This document shows positions 3,369-34,274 of a stretch of 39,373 nucleotides of DNA, piece by piece. The position numbers and the translations under genes were made by a program. The notes below the pieces were generated by a model. That model was not told the DNA's origin. It ran no database searches and worked only from the letters and a program-made list of their open reading frames with translations. Positions within the stretch are counted from its first letter, which is position 1; the number at the start of each line of letters is the position of its first letter. This DNA is from a virus (taxonomy: Duplodnaviria > Heunggongvirae > Uroviricota > Caudoviricetes). The stretch lies in IMG/VR virus record IMGVR_UViG_2534681996_000012. One strand, given 5' to 3'.

Positions 3369-5384
3369 TTACGCACTTCGTAATAAATGTTTAGACATAG
3401 CAGCAATACAGAAACAAGATAAGTCAGCGTAATTTACACCATACATATCCGATTCTTTATCATAAGTAACCAGAGAATAGTCTGTAGGGTTAAGATTATA
3501 TTTCTCCATAATCAGCATTACTTCTTGAGCCATACATCCGAAGTGATACTTATCAGATTCTGCATCTGTCCATTTAAACTTTATCATGCTAATGGCTAAT
3601 TCTAGCCCTGCACTATACTCTGCCGTAGATATCTCATACACATCTTTACATCTACCGTCAGATGTTTGTATTACACCATTAGTTGCAAAGACAGTTTGCC
3701 ATCTACGACTAGATTGACCACAAGTTCTTTGATTATCTATCTGGGGGGCAACACTACCATCTATACGCAAATAGTTATCTTCCGCTTGTGCGCCTCCCAT
3801 AACACCTTCTAAAAAAGGCAATCCTTTGTGATTATTTACAATGAATTTATTGGAGGTATCTTCTGATATTCCGGTGCCAGCATCTGGACCTATAAAAATA
3901 TTACCATTTCCAGTTGGTAATTTTCTTCCTGCTCTTGCTCCTATCATAACATTCAGGTCACCTGAGGATAGGGAATTGAGAGCATCAACACCAATTGCTG
4001 TATTAAAATTACCTGTGAGAGTCCCAGTGTATGGGTTCTTAGTTGATGATACTCCTCGCAATGCTCCATTACCTATAGCTGTGTTATGATCACCTTGCTT
4101 TAACTCCCTACCAGCTGCATTACCAATAAGGGTATTTCCATTACATTTATCATACCCAAGACGTACACCTTGAGGGTCTGTGTAGATGCCAGTACGCATT
4201 CCTGCAGAGCGTCCTATTGCAACATTAGCTTCTCCAGAATGGAGTTGCTGCAAAGCTGACATACCAACTGCAACATTGAACCTACCATCCTTACACTCGT
4301 TTAGCGCATCCCTGCCAATACCAATCATGTTATTTCCAGTGGTGGCTTTCTTCAAAGCATTAATACCTATACTGATAATCTCTGTTCCAGAAAATGGCGA
4401 CTTATCTGTAAGATCATCTTCTAGAGTATCTCCTGACAAACCACCCACACCAACCACGATTGTGTTAGTGCCGCTAGTTATGTTGCGACCAGAACTTGGT
4501 CCAAGCAAAACCAATTGATTACCTTTACCAGAGTCAGTGTAATTTTTTGCGGCATCATAACCTAAAATAAGGTTGCTATGAGACTGAGCTACATTGGTAA
4601 ACGGAATTCGTTCCGCTCCTGTCTCTTTAATTATTTTTCCTGGGCCATAAAATCTTCCATTAATATCTTCCGGCAATAAATACGTGCCATCAGGAACATA
4701 AACACCTTGTGGCGAAGCAGATGCCGCGGCAATGAAAGCATCTGTATCATTTGTGACTCCATCACCTTTAGCGCCAAAGTCAAGAACACTGACAGTATCC
4801 CGCATCTTATCCTGAAACGTTCTATATACCGCGCCTGAACCATACTGAATAAACCAACCAAAACCACCAACAACCCCGGCGATTGCAGCATCGACATAAT
4901 TACGCATTGAGCGATTATTTACAGCGTCCTGCTCAAGTGATGGATCTGCAAGGTTAGAAATTCTGTTTTGCTTTGCATCGTAATATTTTGCAAGCAAAGA
5001 TGGTTTCATCAATGCACGTCTGAACCACCCAAAACATTGCTGGATCAGCATCGTCAGGTAGTCAAAGGCATCTTCATGCACTTCGGGGAAAAACTTTCCC
5101 TGATTGCGAAGGTCTGTCTCCTGCACTACATCAAGCACACGATCTATCGTAATTCGCCATCCAGCAGCAAGCGGCGACGGAAGAACAACAGAACCGCCAC
5201 TATAAGTGCCCGCCCCAGTTACCGTATAACCGGTATCCAGAACCAATTCTGTTACGTTCCCGTTCAGGTCAGACACCTGAACAACCAGGTCGGATTTTTT
5301 GAAAATACGGAAGGTATACGGAAATGATGTCGTAACGCCGTTACCTGTGTATTCGTTGTGGTCAACTTCGGTTGAGACCGTCAT
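3369..5384 (-). CDS. Tail spike/fibre: T7 gp17-like N-terminal adaptor, beta-helix depolymerase-like centre, C-terminal intramolecular chaperone (peptidase S74-like)
   Basis: N-terminus MTVSTEVDHNEYTGNGVTTSFPYTFRIF...LVVQV resembles T7 tail-fibre N-terminal domain; VLDFGAKGDGVTNDTDAF beta-helix signature; C-terminal region resembles autoproteolytic chaperone domains; RBS GGAG. Confidence 0.8.
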   Translation of the reverse strand: MTVSTEVDHNEYTGNGVTTSFPYTFRIFKKSDLVVQVSDLNGNVTELVLDTGYTVTGAGTYSGGSVVLPSPLAAGWRITIDRVLDVVQETDLRNQGKFFPEVHEDAFDYLTMLIQQCFGWFRRALMKPSLLAKYYDAKQNRISNLADPSLEQDAVNNRSMRNYVDAAIAGVVGGFGWFIQYGSGAVYRTFQDKMRDTVSVLDFGAKGDGVTNDTDAFIAAASASPQGVYVPDGTYLLPEDINGRFYGPGKIIKETGAERIPFTNVAQSHSNLILGYDAAKNYTDSGKGNQLVLLGPSSGRNITSGTNTIVVGVGGLSGDTLEDDLTDKSPFSGTEIISIGINALKKATTGNNMIGIGRDALNECKDGRFNVAVGMSALQQLHSGEANVAIGRSAGMRTGIYTDPQGVRLGYDKCNGNTLIGNAAGRELKQGDHNTAIGNGALRGVSSTKNPYTGTLTGNFNTAIGVDALNSLSSGDLNVMIGARAGRKLPTGNGNIFIGPDAGTGISEDTSNKFIVNNHKGLPFLEGVMGGAQAEDNYLRIDGSVAPQIDNQRTCGQSSRRWQTVFATNGVIQTSDGRCKDVYEISTAEYSAGLELAISMIKFKWTDAESDKYHFGCMAQEVMLIMEKYNLNPTDYSLVTYDKESDMYGVNYADLSCFCIAAMSKHLLRSA

Positions 5385-5488
5385 GTTAAATCTCCAGATA
5401 GTCGCAGCACCCGTTGCGCCGCATATCTGGTTATTCTATTACCTGAAAAACCACATATGGATAGAAATACTGTGAATATAAATAGATA

Positions 5489-5503
5489 TTACCTTTTAGG
5501 TAA
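5489..5503. promoter_or_regulatory. Operator-like palindrome TTACC-TTTTA-GGTAA in the tail-spike/accessory divergent region
   Basis: Perfect half-sites; 38 nt upstream of the LexA box. Confidence 0.5.
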
Positions 5504-5540
5504 TTTGCAAAACGTGCTGGATAGCAAACAAATTATTTGA

Positions 5541-5560
5541 TACTGTATAAATATACAGTT
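5541..5560 (+). promoter_or_regulatory. LexA (SOS) box
   Basis: TACTGTATAAATATACAGTT matches CTGT-N8-ACAG consensus with AT-rich centre (18/20 to TACTGTATATATATACAGTA); about 20 nt upstream of the 5581 ATG; degenerate half-box at 5470-5485. Confidence 0.8.
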
Positions 5561-5580
5561 ATTGCATGGAGAAGATTAAG

Positions 5581-5838
5581 ATGCAGCAGTATCACTATCC
5601 ACTGGAAGACGGATTTACCGAAAGGATTCACACGCCGGGAGGCGTCAAGTCACTGGTGGAGGGATCGCACTTGATGAAATTACTCCGGGATCTCGATAAG
5701 GATGGATTTAATGTCGATGGCCCACTTGCCGAACTGACTGCACTGATTAACTACGTCACCAGCTCACAGATGTCTATGCAGGATCTGCAAACACATCTCG
5801 ACTATTGTGCCGAACAATTACGAAAACAAACCAGATAA
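5581..5838 (+). CDS. Small protein sharing a C-terminal domain with the downstream Bro-N antirepressor; antirepressor-like regulator candidate
   Basis: ATG 5581 with GGAG 9 nt upstream (track start 5566 lacks RBS); IHTPGGVKSLVEGSHLMKLL...DLQTHLDYCAEQ aligns with IHSPSGVLGLTENSLLMNLL...DIQTHAEYIND of the 6152-6838 product. Confidence 0.55.
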   Translation: MQQYHYPLEDGFTERIHTPGGVKSLVEGSHLMKLLRDLDKDGFNVDGPLAELTALINYVTSSQMSMQDLQTHLDYCAEQLRKQTR

Positions 5839-5869
5839 GGTTTGCAATTGCCAAGTGGAGTGCTTATAT

Positions 5870-5884
5870 TTACCTTTGCGGTAA
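5870..5884. promoter_or_regulatory. Operator-like palindrome TTACC-TTTGC-GGTAA between the small LexA-controlled gene and the antirepressor
   Basis: Perfect half-sites; followed by hairpins and a weak terminator. Confidence 0.5.
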
Positions 5885-5978
5885 ATTTACATCGCACTCC
5901 TCTTGTGCCATAGTAATCGGGCACTGGCAAAATCCAGTGCCGGGATTGGCGTCCCGAGTTACTACAGAGGCACATATG

Positions 5979-5998
5979 CCGCATAAGCGGTTTTTTTT
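5979..5998 (+). terminator. Weak intrinsic terminator (short stem plus T8)
   Basis: CCGC-ATAA-GCGG followed by eight T; sits between the small LexA-controlled gene and the antirepressor. Confidence 0.45.
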
Positions 5999-6151
5999 AT
6001 GTGTAAAGCGCACCTATTCTATGGTGGGCTGTGTGGGGGCACCGAAAGGTGCGCCGGGTCCTTTGTAGCCGGTTACGCCAACCCTGCACAGTTCACCACC
6101 AACCGATTGGCGTCGGTAGTGGTGATTAACCTAACTACAAAGGTGATCACT

Positions 6152-6838
6152 ATGACTGCTAACGTAACCCCATCTGTTTTTCATTTTGAATCAGAAGCAA
6201 CCATTCGAGCCATTGTTATTGATGGAAATCCTTGGTTTGTTGCCAAAGACGTTATTAAAGCTCTTCAACTGACAAACCCCACTATGTCAATAAAATCTCT
6301 TGATGATGATGAAAGGGCTAAATTTAACTTAGGCCGTCAAGGCGAAACCAATATTATCAACGAGTCAGGCCTCTACACACTGATCCTCCGCTGCCGCGAT
6401 GCAGTAACACCAGGCACTATCCCCTACCGCTTTCGCAAATGGGTTACAGGTGAGGTACTTCCTCAGATCCGCCGCACCGGAAGTTACATTAAAAACTCGC
6501 TCCCGCAGGAAGAACGCATAAAGATGGTTGCCGACCAGGTAGCCAACGCCACGGCGTCAGCAGTGATGCAGGCAATGAAGATAGAGAACAAAACCTACAG
6601 CGCCCCGCTGAAGCCCGGCTACCGCAGCCTGATTCATTCTCCGTCTGGTGTTCTCGGCCTGACGGAGAACTCACTGCTGATGAATCTGCTGAACCAGTTA
6701 CAGGACGACGGGCACGACGTATCGGGCGCGGCGGCGGAGCTGACCACCATGTTCTGTTACATCGTTGGTGTGAGCAAATGCCTGCGTGATATCCAGACCC
6801 ACGCGGAGTACATCAACGACAAGGCAGGGTTCTTCTGA
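6152..6838 (+). CDS. Bro-N domain antirepressor-like protein
   Basis: N-terminal IRAIVIDGNPWFVAKDV...ESGLYTLILRC...FRKWVTGEVLPQIRRTGSY is a Bro-N signature; ATG 6152 with AAGGTGA 5 nt upstream; track extension to 5999 spans a terminator and is rejected. Confidence 0.75.
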   Translation: MTANVTPSVFHFESEATIRAIVIDGNPWFVAKDVIKALQLTNPTMSIKSLDDDERAKFNLGRQGETNIINESGLYTLILRCRDAVTPGTIPYRFRKWVTGEVLPQIRRTGSYIKNSLPQEERIKMVADQVANATASAVMQAMKIENKTYSAPLKPGYRSLIHSPSGVLGLTENSLLMNLLNQLQDDGHDVSGAAAELTTMFCYIVGVSKCLRDIQTHAEYINDKAGFF

Positions 6839-6847
6839 CGGGCGGCG

Positions 6848-6870
6848 GCACAGGGATGTGCCTTTAAAAT
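6848..6870 (+). terminator. Stem-loop after antirepressor gene
   Basis: GGCACA-GGGA-TGTGCC followed by TTTAAAAT. Confidence 0.4.
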
Positions 6871-6904
6871 AATCATTGGCGATGTGATGTAGATTCGCGT
6901 AATA

Positions 6905-6919
6905 TTACCTTAAAGGTAA
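6905..6919. promoter_or_regulatory. Operator-like palindrome TTACC-TTAAA-GGTAA upstream of the toxin/antitoxin-like pair
   Basis: Perfect half-sites, 43 nt upstream of the 6962 ATG. Confidence 0.5.
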
Positions 6920-6961
6920 ACCTGTTTTTATTTTATACCTGTAACTTACCGGAGATTAAAG

Positions 6962-7288
6962 ATGACAAAACTTGGATTCGTGATGAGAGGTCCGGTAAGA
7001 AGCGGAACTCATGCAAAGCGTAGCAAGAGTCGTATTTTTACTGGTAAGGTTGTAGCACGTAAATCAGCTATTGGCTCGTTCAATAGTGAAAATGCGGCAT
7101 TGCGCCATATTTTTATCAGCACAAAGCCAAGAGCATCCGCTGATGTGCATACAATGACTATTCCTATCACAAAGAATATAAAGCGGATAAAAAAGCTCTC
7201 ATCTGCAGAATCAAAAGAGATATCTTTCCGCCAGCTTAACTCATTAGAAACGCATATGAAGGAAGAGGAATTCGATGTTTTTGAGTGA
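6962..7288 (+). CDS. Basic small protein with acidic C-terminal tail; antitoxin candidate
   Basis: GGAG RBS; K/R-rich N-terminal half; C-terminus ...LETHMKEEEFDVFE; stop lies 12 nt after the downstream gene's ATG. Confidence 0.4.
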   Translation: MTKLGFVMRGPVRSGTHAKRSKSRIFTGKVVARKSAIGSFNSENAALRHIFISTKPRASADVHTMTIPITKNIKRIKKLSSAESKEISFRQLNSLETHMKEEEFDVFE

Positions 7289-7787
7289 GTATAGCGGGAA
7301 GGTTATACCTACTGGTGAGTTTAAAACTGATGACTTTCTGATTTCGCTAAAAGATGCTTTTAAACAACACTGGCGTCATGGTCATCATCCTGATCTGGGA
7401 AAAGATACTCTTTTTGAAAGACCAGACGAAGTATTAGGTTTCCATCTCAGAAAGGTTCATGTCAATATTGGTGAATATGCATCATATTCATACTCATGTA
7501 CTGAACAGTGTTGGGATGAGTGGTCATATGGATTGATTGATGAACAAGGAAATTACAGGCCAAAACCAACCAGTAACGCATATCTCATATATGCAGTCAA
7601 TGAAATAAGAGATGCAGCCTTACTAGCTTATTGGGACCCGCCCGCACACACCAAAGCTAACGCAAAAGTTTGGATGGATTCCGTATTGAATTTCACAAAA
7701 TTATTTCATGAACGAACGAATACAGCTCCACTTAGTAGAAATGTTTATCCGTGGGATTATTCGTACAAATCCAAAAAGCCTGCATAG
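7275..7787 (+). CDS. YafO-like toxin candidate (ribosome-dependent mRNA interferase family)
   Basis: Blocks DDFLISLKD, PDLGKDTLFERPD, FHLRKVHVNIG, AYLIYAV and ALLAYWDPPAH resemble the YafO signature as I recall it; GAGGAA RBS; AT-rich. Confidence 0.45.
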   Translation: MFLSEYSGKVIPTGEFKTDDFLISLKDAFKQHWRHGHHPDLGKDTLFERPDEVLGFHLRKVHVNIGEYASYSYSCTEQCWDEWSYGLIDEQGNYRPKPTSNAYLIYAVNEIRDAALLAYWDPPAHTKANAKVWMDSVLNFTKLFHERTNTAPLSRNVYPWDYSYKSKKPA

Positions 7788-7868
7788 TAGTTTTTTATGG
7801 ACGAAACAAAAGTCAGTGCTACACTCATTGACGCCACATTGAGGTGGATTATAGATGGAAATTTCACA

Positions 7869-8030
7869 ATGAAAAAAGCATTTGCTGCACTGTTCGTTTT
7901 GTTGTCTCTGGTAGCTTCAACTCAGGCCTTTGCCGGTCGTTGTCAGCACGACAGCGATACTGCCGCTGACGGCTCCCGCTGCGGTGGGCGTTCTGCGGAT
8001 TCCCGCCCGGGTGGCGGTGGCATTCGTTAA
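7869..8030 (+). CDS. Small secreted peptide (about 53 aa)
   Basis: Classic signal peptide MKKAFAALFVLLSLVASTQAFA then Cys/Gly/Asp-rich mature peptide; weak RBS; track start 7797 places the signal peptide internally so ATG 7869 is preferred. Confidence 0.4.
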   Translation: MKKAFAALFVLLSLVASTQAFAGRCQHDSDTAADGSRCGGRSADSRPGGGGIR

Positions 8031-8036
8031 AAACAA

Positions 8037-8052
8037 GGCCGCGAAAGCGGCC
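8037..8052. terminator. Bidirectional terminator hairpin between convergent accessory genes
   Basis: GGCCGC-GAAA-GCGGCC; TTGTTTTT follows on the minus strand and a T-rich tract 15 nt away on the plus strand. Confidence 0.6.
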
Positions 8053-8053
8053 T

Positions 8054-8065
8054 GTGACATGTCAC
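8054..8065. repeat. 12-bp perfect palindrome GTGACATGTCAC (copy 1), embedding the stop codon of the 8062-8358 gene
   Basis: Identical palindrome recurs at 28286-28297 in the same relationship to a stop codon and a terminator. Confidence 0.7.
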
Positions 8066-8358
8066 GTTCCTTTTCTGAATGATAGCCGTTCGAAAAATGA
8101 TGACATTCCACCGCAGACAATAGCAAAGATGATCCCACCAAAGAAGAGAAGGCCAGCCTGCCACCACTCCCACCGCCATACATCCACAGCGCCAACCATA
8201 CCAACAATCGCTCCAACAAATGGAATATAGCTCACGATGAAAGCAATGGGGGCTGCAATTATCCAGTGCAATCCCCACCATGATTCAAGCCCAGCCATAA
8301 TTGCTGCCAACTGAAAAAGACCAACGACGATATAAACAATGAATCCTATAGCTTGCAT
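8062..8358 (-). CDS. Small integral membrane protein, function unknown
   Basis: ATG 8358 with AGGTGA 5 nt upstream; three hydrophobic helices; lies between the last internal virion gene and the plus-strand accessory island. Confidence 0.5.
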   Translation of the reverse strand: MQAIGFIVYIVVGLFQLAAIMAGLESWWGLHWIIAAPIAFIVSYIPFVGAIVGMVGAVDVWRWEWWQAGLLFFGGIIFAIVCGGMSSFFERLSFRKGT

Positions 8359-8554
8359 GTAGTCACCTAATTTACCCAGTAAAAATAAGAGGCCTCCCCT
8401 CAATAAGGCTTGCAACAAGAACTACTCCCTGCACAACAAAGATGAACCAGCAAATAGCTTGAGTCTGAGGGTTAAGAAAATATTTGTAGCGGTCAATAAA
8501 TAACAATCCACCAGAAATTATCACACTCAAAATAATTAAAAACACAACACTTCC

Positions 8555-11029
8555 TTATTGCGGAGTGACATCCTGTGGTCGCCACCAGTATGTCTGGTTA
8601 AACTCTTTCTTCGAACGTTGCTCCATTTTACGCAAATAACCTGGTGAAAAATACTCCTGCATCTGGTTAAAGATCATGTGATCGAGAGCCGCCTTCAAGT
8701 ACCAGAGATTCGCACCAGGCATCAAACCTTTCCCCAGCTTCACCAGATCACCACCAGTCTGCTCACTCTTCCCTTCCACAGCATTTAACGGTATGCCCTG
8801 AGCAATCTTCACTACATCATCAACCAGACCAGCTACCGGGCCAAGCATCGACGCCAGCGCGCCGCTCCCGTACCTAGTGTGGTCAGAGAAAAGAAAATCA
8901 CCGTACAACCCAGCCCCGCCACCTTTTAAAAATGCATTTATCCAGAATTTAACCATGTGGTCACCGGTCATTTCCTTTGGATTTCTCCCATTAATAAGAT
9001 CAGTAATCTGCATGGAAAGAGCACCAAGCATGGTTGTGCTTGCTAAAAACGTTGCTATATATGCTGCACGCCCACCAGCAGACGGCATACCCATAGCGCG
9101 TGACCAGTGACGCATAACAACCGAGATAGGGAACGATTTAAACAGGAAAACACTTCTCGTTAATTCACCTTTCCATGTTCCACGCTGAAGACCAGACCCT
9201 ACGAACATCTGCTCACGTGCGCCCGGTGTAATAACAGCCATATCAACTTCTTCAGTTACGGCACCGAGCAGTTTACGCATTGCCTCAAATTTCACGCGTT
9301 CAGGCTCACCAAGATGTTTAACTGCTGAATCAGGGATACGCATAATGCTTTCCGGTGTCAGCATCGTATTATTACCGTTCCCCCAGTCCTCCTGTTGCGC
9401 CAACTTCCATACGCTCCAGTCTGTGTCAGTAATCCCTTTGCTTTTCAGGATACGAAAATCAGAGTCATCGAGGCGACGAAGGTCTGGTGTCCGTGACACT
9501 ACTTCTCCCAGGCTTCCCATCATGGTTACGCCATAGGCGCGCTTGTGCGCATCTGACCATGCTGTAAGCCCACTGGCACGCATTACCGCCGTTGCAGCCC
9601 AACGAGACACAGACGGCCCCATATTATCCATCGCCCAGCGGTTAACGCTGCCAAGTAGAGATTCCATCGCCAGGCCAGCGCGGCGCGCCCGCGCAAGCTC
9701 AGTACGGTTCGTTGGGTCCATAGCTTCAAGCTGGTTGCGAAATAACTGGTTCATTGGAAGGTTGGTAACCTTCGCAGACAGATACATGGTTCCAAGATCA
9801 GAGAACGATGACAGCAACGCGGATCCGAGTCTGCTGGCAACCAGCCAGTTGCGGATATTGTCAGACCATCGCGCGATGTGGGGATTCGCTACAGGCTGTG
9901 TTTTTCCGGAAATAAAGTTGTACAAGTTCTCTGTTTTGTTCGCCAGACGCTCGACGCTACCGGTTTTACTCGGGTTAGCTGTTGCCGTTTCTGCCTTAAC
10001 CTGATCAAGAAGGGAGCGGAAAACATGATCGGGGTTTGGACCATATGTTTCCACCAGAGCAATATCTTTACTGATACCTTCCAGGTGACCGACCATGATT
10101 TCCCATAGAGAGCGATCGCCATAAAGTTGCTGATATTGCAGATAGGAATCTGCATCTTTGAAATGTATCTGTCGTGATGCATTACCACGGTTAGCACGTG
10201 CGCCGGAAATTCGCATTCCGGTATCAGTAAGCTTATTCAGCCCACCAGTAGCGATCGTGTTATAAGCCTCTCCAAGAAATGCAGACAACTCGGCATCGTT
10301 CATCAGTTGTCCATCGGCTCGGGTATAATATTTGCGATCCAGCTTACCTATAACATCGCTAACCCATTTATCTTTTGATACCGCCCCAACCTTTTCCATA
10401 GAATGATGTTGAGGGATCCCCCAGTTTTCGAGATAGCCAATGTCCCCACCAGCATCATTAAACCGGCGGCGGAGTAGATCTGTCACTTCTCTCCACGCCT
10501 TAGCACCTTTTCTTGCTTTAGCATTGCCAGTATTTTGCCCTCGCATTTCATATACCAGGTCACGCACGCCCGCTTCATCTTCAAACAGGCCAAAAAAGCG
10601 AGGATCAACTGCTTCGAATGCCTCCTGCAATTGACTCAATGCATAATCACGGGTGGCTTTTGTTCTGGATTCAACAGAGAGGAAATTAGATTTACCGTCT
10701 GCATTAAAAGCAATAGTACGGTTAAGAGCGCCAAGTTTCCCATCAGCCCCTTGATAGCTATTGATAAATTTATCCAATCTCTGACGTGCGGCTATAGTGA
10801 GGGCCACACGACGTTTCTTTAATGCCGCTTCTCGCTGTAATTCTTCAGATGCCAATTGTGCTGCACGATATAGCCGCTCTGATTCGGAAAGTTGTCTCCA
10901 CGACATCGGGTCATCACGAGCAATGGAGCGCATATTTCGATAAATGCGGTCTTCAATGTTCTGTATTTCTCGCGCCGTTAACGTGCGCTGCGCCGCCTGC
11001 TGGACCGCTTGTATACATTCCTGTCTCAT
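8555..11029 (-). CDS. Internal virion (ejection) protein, C-terminal part of a gp16-like module
   Basis: 824 aa; position after the other internal virion proteins and before the tail spike. Confidence 0.55.
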   Translation of the reverse strand: MRQECIQAVQQAAQRTLTAREIQNIEDRIYRNMRSIARDDPMSWRQLSESERLYRAAQLASEELQREAALKKRRVALTIAARQRLDKFINSYQGADGKLGALNRTIAFNADGKSNFLSVESRTKATRDYALSQLQEAFEAVDPRFFGLFEDEAGVRDLVYEMRGQNTGNAKARKGAKAWREVTDLLRRRFNDAGGDIGYLENWGIPQHHSMEKVGAVSKDKWVSDVIGKLDRKYYTRADGQLMNDAELSAFLGEAYNTIATGGLNKLTDTGMRISGARANRGNASRQIHFKDADSYLQYQQLYGDRSLWEIMVGHLEGISKDIALVETYGPNPDHVFRSLLDQVKAETATANPSKTGSVERLANKTENLYNFISGKTQPVANPHIARWSDNIRNWLVASRLGSALLSSFSDLGTMYLSAKVTNLPMNQLFRNQLEAMDPTNRTELARARRAGLAMESLLGSVNRWAMDNMGPSVSRWAATAVMRASGLTAWSDAHKRAYGVTMMGSLGEVVSRTPDLRRLDDSDFRILKSKGITDTDWSVWKLAQQEDWGNGNNTMLTPESIMRIPDSAVKHLGEPERVKFEAMRKLLGAVTEEVDMAVITPGAREQMFVGSGLQRGTWKGELTRSVFLFKSFPISVVMRHWSRAMGMPSAGGRAAYIATFLASTTMLGALSMQITDLINGRNPKEMTGDHMVKFWINAFLKGGGAGLYGDFLFSDHTRYGSGALASMLGPVAGLVDDVVKIAQGIPLNAVEGKSEQTGGDLVKLGKGLMPGANLWYLKAALDHMIFNQMQEYFSPGYLRKMEQRSKKEFNQTYWWRPQDVTPQ

Positions 11030-24623: not shown

Positions 24624-24638
24624 TTACCTTTCAGGTAA
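24624..24638 (+). promoter_or_regulatory. Operator-like palindrome TTACC-TTTCA-GGTAA downstream of a TTGACA hexamer
   Basis: TTGACA at 24602-24607; palindrome sits where a -10 element would be; upstream of tRNA-Arg. Confidence 0.5.
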
Positions 24639-24960: not shown

Positions 24961-25037
24961 GTGGCATTAGCTCAGTTGGACAGAGCAACCGCCTTCTAAG
25001 CGGTTGGTCGCAGGTTCGAATCCTGCATGCCACGCCA
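24961..25037 (+). tRNA. tRNA-Arg (anticodon UCU)
   Basis: Cloverleaf folds by hand: acceptor GTGGCAT/ATGCCAC, D-stem GCTC/GAGC, anticodon stem ACCGC/GCGGT with loop CTTCTAA, T-arm GCAGG-TTCGAAT-CCTGC, discriminator G and encoded CCA. Confidence 0.85.
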
Positions 25038-25200
25038 GAATCACACCTGAGGACCGTGATGCCAGAAGTTCCAGGGGCTTGGCGGTGATGGTTTCCCTTG
25101 AAGGACTACCACCGCCCTTTTTACAGCAGGACGCCATTGCGATGACTTCATGCTGTAAACCAGTACAGCCACGGAAGGCGGAACTCATTGCTTCCAGTTC

Positions 25201-33571: not shown

Positions 33572-33634
33572 TCACCCATAAGGTAACAAAAATCAAGGAT
33601 AGTTACCTATGGGGTGCATTTACCTGTTGGGTAA
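33572..33634. promoter_or_regulatory. Immunity-region operator cluster (three TTACC-N5-GGTAA-type sites) with divergent promoters
   Basis: TCACC-CATAA-GGTAA 33572-33586, TTACC-TATGG-GGTGC 33603-33617, TTACC-TGTTG-GGTAA 33620-33634; plus AT-rich inverted repeat TATTTAT-N8-ATAAATA at 33549-33570. Confidence 0.6.
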
Positions 33635-33689: not shown

Positions 33690-34274
33690 ATGAAAAGTAT
33701 CCAGGACGTCCGCAGGCAAAATCTCAACGACTTGATCGACCGTGAATTCAATGGTGTTCAGACGCGGATGGCAGAAAAACTTGGAACTCAGGCAAATCTG
33801 GTAAACCGCTGGGCTCTTGGCAAGAAGGTTATCGGCGACCAGGTTGCGCGAAAAATTGAAGCTGCCGCCAATAAACCCCGTAACTGGCTTGATATCGATC
33901 GCTCGCTTTCTCAGGAAGGTTTTCAGCCTGTCGGCCCAAGCGACATTGGTCAGCTGGCGGCTCACAACCTGGAACGCTGGATGAGCGAAAGCCGCGACCT
34001 TTCAACACAGGGAAAACTTCACCGCGCATCCGGCGTCGCCCAGGTGACAATCAGCCGCCTGTTAAACAATGAGGTCAGCGTTTCCATTTCCACCCTGGAG
34101 AATGTTGCATCCGCATTCGGGCGTCACGGCTATGAATTACTGATTCACCCGCACGACCCTGCGACCATCAACTATGACCGCTCGCGCTACGCATTGTTAC
34201 CCGAAACCGAGAAAGCAAAGATCGAAAGTTACATTGAATTTGTCATCAACCAGAACGAAAAAAACAAACAATAA
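33690..34274 (+). CDS. Prophage repressor, tandem HTH domains, no LexA-like peptidase domain
   Basis: Two XRE-type HTH-like segments (MAEKLGTQANLVNRWALGKK and LHRASGVAQVTISRLLNNE); no Ala-Gly cleavage site or Ser/Lys dyad; followed by terminator and operator-controlled promoter. Confidence 0.65.
   Translation: MKSIQDVRRQNLNDLIDREFNGVQTRMAEKLGTQANLVNRWALGKKVIGDQVARKIEAAANKPRNWLDIDRSLSQEGFQPVGPSDIGQLAAHNLERWMSESRDLSTQGKLHRASGVAQVTISRLLNNEVSVSISTLENVASAFGRHGYELLIHPHDPATINYDRSRYALLPETEKAKIESYIEFVINQNEKNKQ

Follow-up and report, generated by a model that had tools for sequence, protein, structure and literature searches.

The closest described relatives of the arrangement reported here are the immI (second immunity) loci of phages P1 and P7, in which the c4 RNA blocks translation of ant at a ribosome-binding site (RBS) (PMC12197685). 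In our reference layout, taken from the GenBank annotation of the P1 genome and from reviews, P1 immI is composed of the operator Oc4, the promoters P2c4 and P1c4, the sites a1 and b1, the C4 RNA, the sites a2 and b2 (the latter positioned over the icd RBS), icd and ant. In the isrK-orf45(STnc1160)-anrP locus of Gifsy-1, read-through of IsrK is combined with activation of the antirepressor AnrP in trans, with the processed RNA STnc1160 mapping downstream of IsrK; that study likened IsrK to seqA/CI of P4 and not to a1b1/C4 of P1 (Hershko-Shalev 2016, PMC4825925). Small antirepressors under LexA control have been described as GfoA/GftA of the Gifsy phages, Tum of 186 and AntC of N15 (PMC3121763). 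In P22 immI (mnt-arc-ant), beside the tailspike gene, ant translation is blocked by sar, a cis-antisense RNA from the opposite strand.

Given these precedents, we analysed a 313-nt untranslated spacer upstream of a phage antirepressor gene and compared it with these systems. The window is the whole stretch of 39,373 nt deposited as IMG/VR record IMGVR_UViG_2534681996_000012, and the region around the spacer is 92-96% identical to the epsilon15-like E. coli podoviruses phiV10, TL-2011b and vB_EcoP_ZX5. After the tail-spike gene, the plus strand carries a LexA box, a 90-aa gene (p90), the spacer and a Bro-N antirepressor gene (ant), with the spacer covering 5839-6151, the extent given in the initial annotation, between a TAA stop (5836-5838) and the ant ATG (6152) (Table 1). 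Judged from its sequence, the spacer is a real, conserved and functional control region of a known type, composed of two already-described phage regulatory RNAs. Taken as a whole, it is in all likelihood best explained as the RNA control region of a P1-type immI module in an epsilon15-like E. coli prophage.

Table 1. Features of the spacer locus and associated elements in the window (strand: +, -, or. where the element is not assigned to one strand).
Feature	Position	Strand	Remarks
Tail-spike gene	3369-5384	-	left of spacer locus
Operator-palindrome copies	5489, 5870, 6905, 24624, 25242, 28175, 28193, 31227, 31289, 33572, 33620, 34332, 34394	.	motif count
Repressor operator copy TTACCTTTTAGGTAA	5489-5503	.	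38 nt upstream of LexA box
LexA box TACTGTATAAATATACAGT	5541-5559	.	upstream of p90
p90, 90-aa gene	5566-5838	+	stand-alone paralogue of Ant C-terminal domain; 42% identity over 78 aa
Promoter-like site TTGCAA-17-TATATT	5842-5870	+	promoter scan; counterpart of P1 P2c4/P51a
Repressor operator TTACCTTTGCGGTAA	5870-5884	.	counterpart of P1 Oc4/Op51
Promoter-like site TTTACA-17-CATAGT, TG extension	5886-5914	+	promoter scan; counterpart of P1 P1c4/P51b
IsrK-like small RNA and a1b1 leader	5921-5998	+	RF01394; hairpin 1 5921-5940, hairpin 2 5941-5956, terminator 5978-5998
a1 target UUGGCGU	5946-5952	+	mostly in hairpin 2 loop of IsrK-like RNA; exact complement of a'
b1 target CUACAGAGG	5962-5970	+	complement of b', one G-U pair
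C4 antisense RNA, Rfam match extent	6017-6103	+	RF01695
b' CCUUUGUAG	6060-6068	+	loop of C4 hairpin 2; P(unpaired) 0.85 in mature C4
a' ACGCCAA	6075-6081	+	single strand between hairpin 2 and closing stem; P(unpaired) 1.00 in mature C4
a2 target UUGGCGU	6107-6113	+	in small potential hairpin CCGA/UCGG; exact complement of a'
AGUGGUGAUUA segment	6118-6128	+	pairs with C4 3' strand UCACCAC or with ant Shine-Dalgarno/AUG region
b2 target CUACAAAGG	6135-6143	+	complement of b'; overlaps Shine-Dalgarno AAGGUG 6140-6145
Antirepressor gene ant, 228 aa	6152-6838	+	Bro-N (Pfam, E 5e-20) and C-terminal phrog_450 domain; phrog_130 'anti-repressor Ant', E 5e-56
Third operator copy	6905-6919	.	upstream of orf108
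Candidate prophage repressor, 194 aa, HTH_3	33690-34274	+	operator pairs at 33572/33620 and 34332/34394 flank gene
Records with overlapping annotations	L088 763-936; L092 705-797; L001 3578-3645; L089 325-1473; L090 331-1473		

Membership of both RNA families is directly supported by the Rfam scan. The 5' RNA matches the full-length isrK model (RF01394) at 5921-5997 with 74.2 bits against a curated gathering threshold of 50, and in this fit to the full model it resembles the short RNA of Gifsy-1. A permissive scan also matched c4-a1b1 (RF03163) at 5908-5960, although its 44.3 bits fall slightly short of the gathering score, 46.7 (P1 c4-a1b1 scores 51.0 bits); this match overlies the 5' half of isrK, with both hairpins and the -10-like 5' flank aligned. 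Rfam returns the same three matches in the same order on P1, where the isrK match is sub-threshold and is accounted for by the hairpin and T-run that follow P1 b1, an element also present after b1 here. That isrK and c4-a1b1 cover identical bases both here and in P1 points to a single element, such that Salmonella IsrK is apparently equivalent to the leader carrying a1/b1 in the C4 system of P1. The second RNA matches the C4 model over positions 1-87 of 87 (79.5 bits; gathering threshold 45). From the ends of P1 C4, mature C4 is predicted to span 6023-6100, and the predicted C4 3' end lies 49 nt from the ant ATG, a gap that contains no ORF.

The IsrK-like RNA begins with the hairpins GCACTGG/CCAGTGC (5921-5927/5934-5940) and CGGGA/TCCCG (5941-5945/5952-5956; five pairs and the 6-nt loop TTGGCG) and ends in an intrinsic terminator with the stem GCCGC-ATAA-GCGGT (5978-5991) and a T8 run (5991-5998), visible as a U-rich tail on the RNA, the one feature here that bears on Hfq binding; all three had been noted in the initial annotation and are exact. 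The GCACC-GAAA-GGTGC hairpin exists as well, at 6039-6052 and not at 6028-6044, about 11 nt from its first placement. It is enclosed, together with a second hairpin (6053-6057/6069-6073), by a 17-bp closing stem (6022-6038/6082-6098). The earlier description of the spacer as densely structured was correct, but it overlooked this closing stem and the second hairpin, which unite 6017-6103 as a single RNA; the suggestion of a small RNA also holds, yet there are two RNAs, both from known families (IsrK/c4-a1b1 and C4). Folding is stronger than expected by chance, with z-scores of -2.84 (5921-5998), -4.32 (6023-6100) and -3.32 (6101-6170).

Both folds are conserved in relatives, in which compensatory changes are observed directly. 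In the IsrK fold, 9 of 17 pairs show double changes; none of 500 shuffles came as high on four of five covariation measures and a single one did on the fifth, and all slid controls were exceeded. The C4 fold shows double changes in 14 of 27 pairs, with 99.5% of cells paired, all five measures above every one of 500 shuffles and, again, all slid controls exceeded. Its 3' CCACC is invariant (14/14 sequences).

The C4 fold presents its two pairing sites as C4 of P1/P7 does, with b' in the loop of hairpin 2 and a' in the single strand that follows, and the targets are likewise duplicated upstream and downstream, the downstream b site lying on an RBS. Every RNA element of P1/P7 immI is found here in the same order and orientation. 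The pairing sequences themselves differ (a'/b' ACGCCAA/CCUUUGUAG here, CUGUCAA/UCACUAAC in P1), as do the cargo and the host replicon, an epsilon15-like integrating podovirus as opposed to a plasmid prophage. The exact complementarity of a' to both of its targets is observed, and duplex energies are predicted at -9.3 kcal/mol for the a pairings and -12.6 to -13.3 kcal/mol for the b pairings. In P1, b2 covers the icd RBS; here icd is absent and b2 covers the RBS of ant itself, AAGGTG at 6140-6145, which had been recognized from the start. With neither icd nor an orf45-like ORF in between, b2 would act on the ant RBS directly.

Changes in the pairing sites were followed in a close-relative set of 79 IMG/VR loci, whose encoded Ant proteins are at least 81% identical, and in the wider diversity recovered by a distant blastn search. 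Four specificity classes can be told apart among the 79 close relatives; a change in a1/a'/a2 or in b1/b'/b2 always involves all three sites of the set, classes I and III differing in b alone and classes III and IV in a alone. Across 17 allele sets, comprising 7 core alleles of a and 14 different sequences of the b' loop, all three places change together: every a' has an exact 7-nt complement both upstream and downstream, and every b' has a 6-12-nt complement (G-U allowed) on both sides. Duplexes between C4 and the upstream region average -25.3 kcal/mol for cognate and -15.8 kcal/mol for non-cognate combinations, with 15 of 17 cognates ranked first. The corresponding ranking for the downstream region is noisy because a single duplex cannot bridge the 22-nt gap between a2 and b2 and because the a allele is shared by many loci, and for the same reason a longest-run statistic (G-U allowed) separates cognate from non-cognate combinations only moderately. 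Whole-length RNAduplex of C4 against its flanks merely unfolded C4 and was uninformative; loop-restricted and motif tests were used instead. We regard the exact allele table as the decisive evidence for co-varying specificity sites.

The promoter and operator layout is also directly observed. With at most 1 mismatch allowed, the window contains 13 copies of the motif TTACC-N5-GGTAA where 0.59 would be expected, and 0 of 100 shuffles reached this count. The copy at 5870-5884, whose initially annotated coordinates are exact, sits between two promoter-like sites and has a counterpart in almost all relatives at a position near -282 relative to ant; some of these relatives (among IMG/VR loci L004-L082) have a second operator about 93 nt upstream of that counterpart. 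The -10 hexamer of the upstream site, TTGCAA-17-TATATT, abuts this operator, and in a divergent class of relatives a comparable -35/-10 pair is apparently kept at the place of 5842-5870, in an alignment judged by eye. For the downstream site, TTTACA-17-CATAGT, the predicted transcription start is at about 5921 and coincides with position 1 of the isrK model; in 14 of 14 diverse loci that position is preceded at 7 nt by a -10-like hexamer, itself preceded at 17 nt by a TTGAC-like -35 hexamer.

Pairs of copies of this palindrome flank the gene of a 194-aa HTH protein, whose homologues in phiV10 and epsilon15 are the putative repressors of those phages (the phiV10 homologue is annotated as a two-HTH putative repressor). 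This protein is presumed to bind the 5870 operator and to be the target of the antirepressors; a Pfam search found no Peptidase_S24 match in it. In P1, too, the main-repressor operator is positioned at the promoters (P51a/P51b) and further copies are scattered round the genome, although the operator there is an asymmetric 17-mer bound by C1 and here a palindrome. Elsewhere in the window, a tRNA-Arg gene (anticodon TCT, 24961-25037) lies between the operator copies at 24624 and 25242, and a second LexA-like box, CTGT-N8-ACAG, is found just downstream of it at 25153-25168.

The antirepressor encoded downstream is a Bro-N protein without detectable similarity to P1 Ant1 (BLASTP, E 0.11). Its Shine-Dalgarno and AUG are predicted to lie in a hairpin (6118-6153) even without C4, with a P(unpaired) of 0.19 for the Shine-Dalgarno and the 5' half of b2 in the loop, and this arrangement is seen in most of 14 loci. 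C4 is for this reason perhaps not the sole block to translation, and the short RNA may remodel the leader rather than titrate C4. Beyond ant, after the third operator, orf108 (phrog_5933) and the overlapping orf170 (phrog_1651; weak YafO_toxin match, E 9.5e-4) occupy part of 6905-7787, and this pair is missing from the equivalent place in phiV10.

The gene on the other side of the spacer, p90, aligns with residues 143-220 of Ant (E 1e-16), and both proteins match phrog_450; the phage carries two related antirepressor modules, p90 and Ant, under different controls. A perfect CTGT-N8-ACAG box is found within 130 nt upstream of 70 of 76 p90 homologues. From this LexA box we infer an SOS promoter for p90, although a scan around the box found no consensus sigma-70 promoter. 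The small LexA-controlled antirepressors (PMC3121763) provide the closest comparison: like them, p90 combines a perfect conserved LexA box with homology to an antirepressor domain and a location away from the immunity region, and the candidate repressor has no Peptidase_S24 match. The likeness is drawn from context and Ant-domain homology and concerns a neighbour gene of the spacer; unlike in those phages, the SOS gene here is directly upstream of a second, antisense-controlled antirepressor. P1, for its part, has no such LexA-controlled paralogue of the Ant C-terminal domain just upstream of its module. In part of the relatives among loci L004-L082, the p90 homologue is about 1.4 kb upstream of ant, not about 0.6 kb, with extra DNA inserted before the RNA module.

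By analogy with P1 and Gifsy-1, we infer how these elements would act together, including the transcript ends, cleavage by RNase P, repression, the block of translation and the action of the short RNA as a sponge. Transcription would start at about 5921 or upstream, from the two promoters flanking the prophage-repressor operator. The first 77 nt would form two hairpins and the intrinsic terminator, the a1 site being exposed for the most part by a hairpin loop and b1 by the unpaired stretch that directly follows, and transcripts stopping at T8 would constitute the IsrK-like small RNA. Read-through transcripts would contain C4, which, as in P1, would be excised by RNase P at its 5' end and by 3' trimming. 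Mature C4 is predicted to pair with a2 and b2 of the ant leader through the a' strand and the b' loop of hairpin 2, and with b2 over the Shine-Dalgarno, antirepressor translation would be blocked in the lysogen. The a1/b1 copy, either in the free short RNA or in cis, would compete for the same C4 surfaces, such that an excess of short RNA would release ant translation and Ant would then inactivate the repressor. The Gifsy-1 locus shares several of these features: an intrinsic terminator with read-through into the antirepressor gene, shown in Gifsy-1 and predicted here, and a stable processed RNA, again predicted here, between the short RNA and the antirepressor and complementary to the short RNA. 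It differs in having orf45, no ORF of this kind being conserved here, and no antQ or isrJ context was seen.

Several other readings of the spacer were weighed against this antisense model. The release step could be a remodelling of the Gifsy-1 type and not a titration, a live rival or complement to simple titration that we consider possible, though on balance improbable. The read-through mRNA would be self-locked, its Shine-Dalgarno/AUG hairpinned by the GUGGUGAUUA segment; the short RNA would bind the C4 domain within the unprocessed mRNA, and the C4 3' strand would capture GUGGUGA and so open the RBS. The leader hairpin described above is what such a lock would look like, and GGUGGUGA downstream of C4 can form an alternative 8-bp helix with the C4 3' strand, tracking changes of that strand in YYZ-2008 and pPE4 and present in P1 in its own complementary version. 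The counterparts of these helices in Gifsy-1 may be the alternative structures A and B revealed there by genetics, with IsrK in trans activating translation at least 100-fold (PMC4825925); co-expression of STnc1160 failed to counteract IsrK there, a poor fit to a pure sponge model (PMC4825925). Arguing against remodelling here are the lack of a conserved ORF, the very stable C4 fold (-44.7 kcal/mol), which would be formed before GUGGUGA is transcribed, and the number of independent events, two or three, behind the covariation of the alternative helix. In P1, mutants in c4 derepress ant, which argues for C4 in trans as the main block and against remodelling.

The initial annotation had offered, as one possibility, an attenuator controlling read-through from the SOS promoter, and as the main mechanism this does not hold: the spacer has conserved promoters of its own, the module occurs elsewhere without a LexA box (none within about 600-700 nt upstream in most other phages), and control is predicted to be exerted by antisense pairing in trans at the antirepressor RBS. 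A weaker form of the idea survives, in that the T8 terminator probably divides transcription between a short RNA and a longer read-through product. Termination might further be assisted by C4, as in CI/seqA of P4, with C4 pairing to nascent a1/b1, promoting termination at T8 and thereby autoregulating itself, limiting ant transcription and attenuating SOS read-through. That b1 ends 7 nt before the terminator stem, that a weak hairpin, GGCA-CAUA-UGCC (5969-5980, found by eye), overlaps b1 and the 5' arm of the terminator, and that no terminator is predicted between the LexA-controlled gene and T8 would suit such a role, which the IsrK authors raised as a possibility for STnc1160. We nevertheless consider it unlikely, since the candidate anti-terminator has just 4 bp and is missing from the minimum-energy and centroid folds, and since the interval has its own conserved promoters and most other phages lack the LexA box; a permissive Rfam scan of the spacer matched no cis-regulatory family. 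Least probable by far is that the spacer encodes a small protein, either an icd- or orf45-like ORF or an N-terminally extended Ant, translated in coupling with ant. The ATG at 5999 is in frame with ant with no stop between in this window, and icd in P1 and orf45 in Gifsy-1 occupy the equivalent place, each coupled in translation to the antirepressor gene. This ATG, the only candidate for an orf45-like ORF between the short RNA and ant, is not conserved as a reading frame, however: in relatives it closes after 2 codons or, where the frame is a different one, after 24. It is preceded by no Shine-Dalgarno, its translation and that of an 87-aa TTG ORF have no Pfam match, and what is conserved in the sequence, through compensatory changes, is the RNA structure. 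A P22-like sar/arc/mnt system, despite the shared position beside a tailspike gene and the shared use of an RNA against ant translation, was rejected: a permissive Rfam scan of both strands (E up to 10) found no sar, the promoter scan found no minus-strand promoter in 5300-7100, and no mnt or arc was noticed on a look through the ORF list for 3500-9000.

Returning to the antisense model, its connection to the SOS response can be stated tentatively. No terminator is predicted between 5838 and 5978, so SOS transcripts would run into T8 and carry a1/b1 in their 3' part. It is conceivable, if rather doubtful, that the SOS response and the antisense lock are wired in series and that the read-through mRNA also works as a three-partner structural switch. 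If so, the p90 mRNA would end at T8 with a1/b1 in its 3' UTR, and DNA damage would supply two things at once, the small antirepressor p90 and a surge of decoy RNA for C4; through this decoy, the lock on translation of the larger Bro-N antirepressor would be opened in a feed-forward commitment step. In the switch, the C4 3' strand would choose between the C4 5' strand and GUGGUGA, and the Shine-Dalgarno would be a second possible partner of GUGGUGA; the potential for this three-partner arrangement is conserved in most of the 14 loci.

The block is widespread. The distant blastn search recovered it in 235 phage records, including Stx phages, APSE of Hamiltonella and phages of Klebsiella, Yersinia, Salmonella and Actinobacillus; the tandem of isrK and C4 was present in 12 of 12 diverse phage loci examined, and 940 of 5426 complete E. 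coli genomes contain a match to the block. In Stx2_EH0505, a Stx2a phage, a match to the Rfam family sRNA-Xcc1 (RF02221, 75.7 bits; locus L093, 1343-1426) lies about 560 nt downstream of C4. Deposited CDSs or a 'similar to SF0880' feature sit atop the C4/IsrK RNA genes in some records, for example orf34 of VT2-Sakai and ORF30 of pPE4, and the antirepressor CDSs of PhiR47_1 and 118970_sal3 start about 350 nt upstream of isrK (Table 1). Both the CDSs over C4/IsrK and the early antirepressor starts are probably mis-annotations. In phiV10-, Stx- and other phage records the block either carries no annotation or is wrongly entered as small CDSs; its correct annotation is of value in itself.

The RNA families and their arrangement are known, and the basic picture established for P1 is unchanged by the present findings; what differs from P1 immI is the cargo and the absence of icd. 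The apparent equivalence of IsrK and a1b1 joins the literature on dual-function sRNAs with that on antisense immunity. Finally, the many a and b alleles reassorted among near-identical phages suggest diversifying selection on immunity specificity at the RNA level, which bears on cross-talk between prophages and on the induction of Stx phages.
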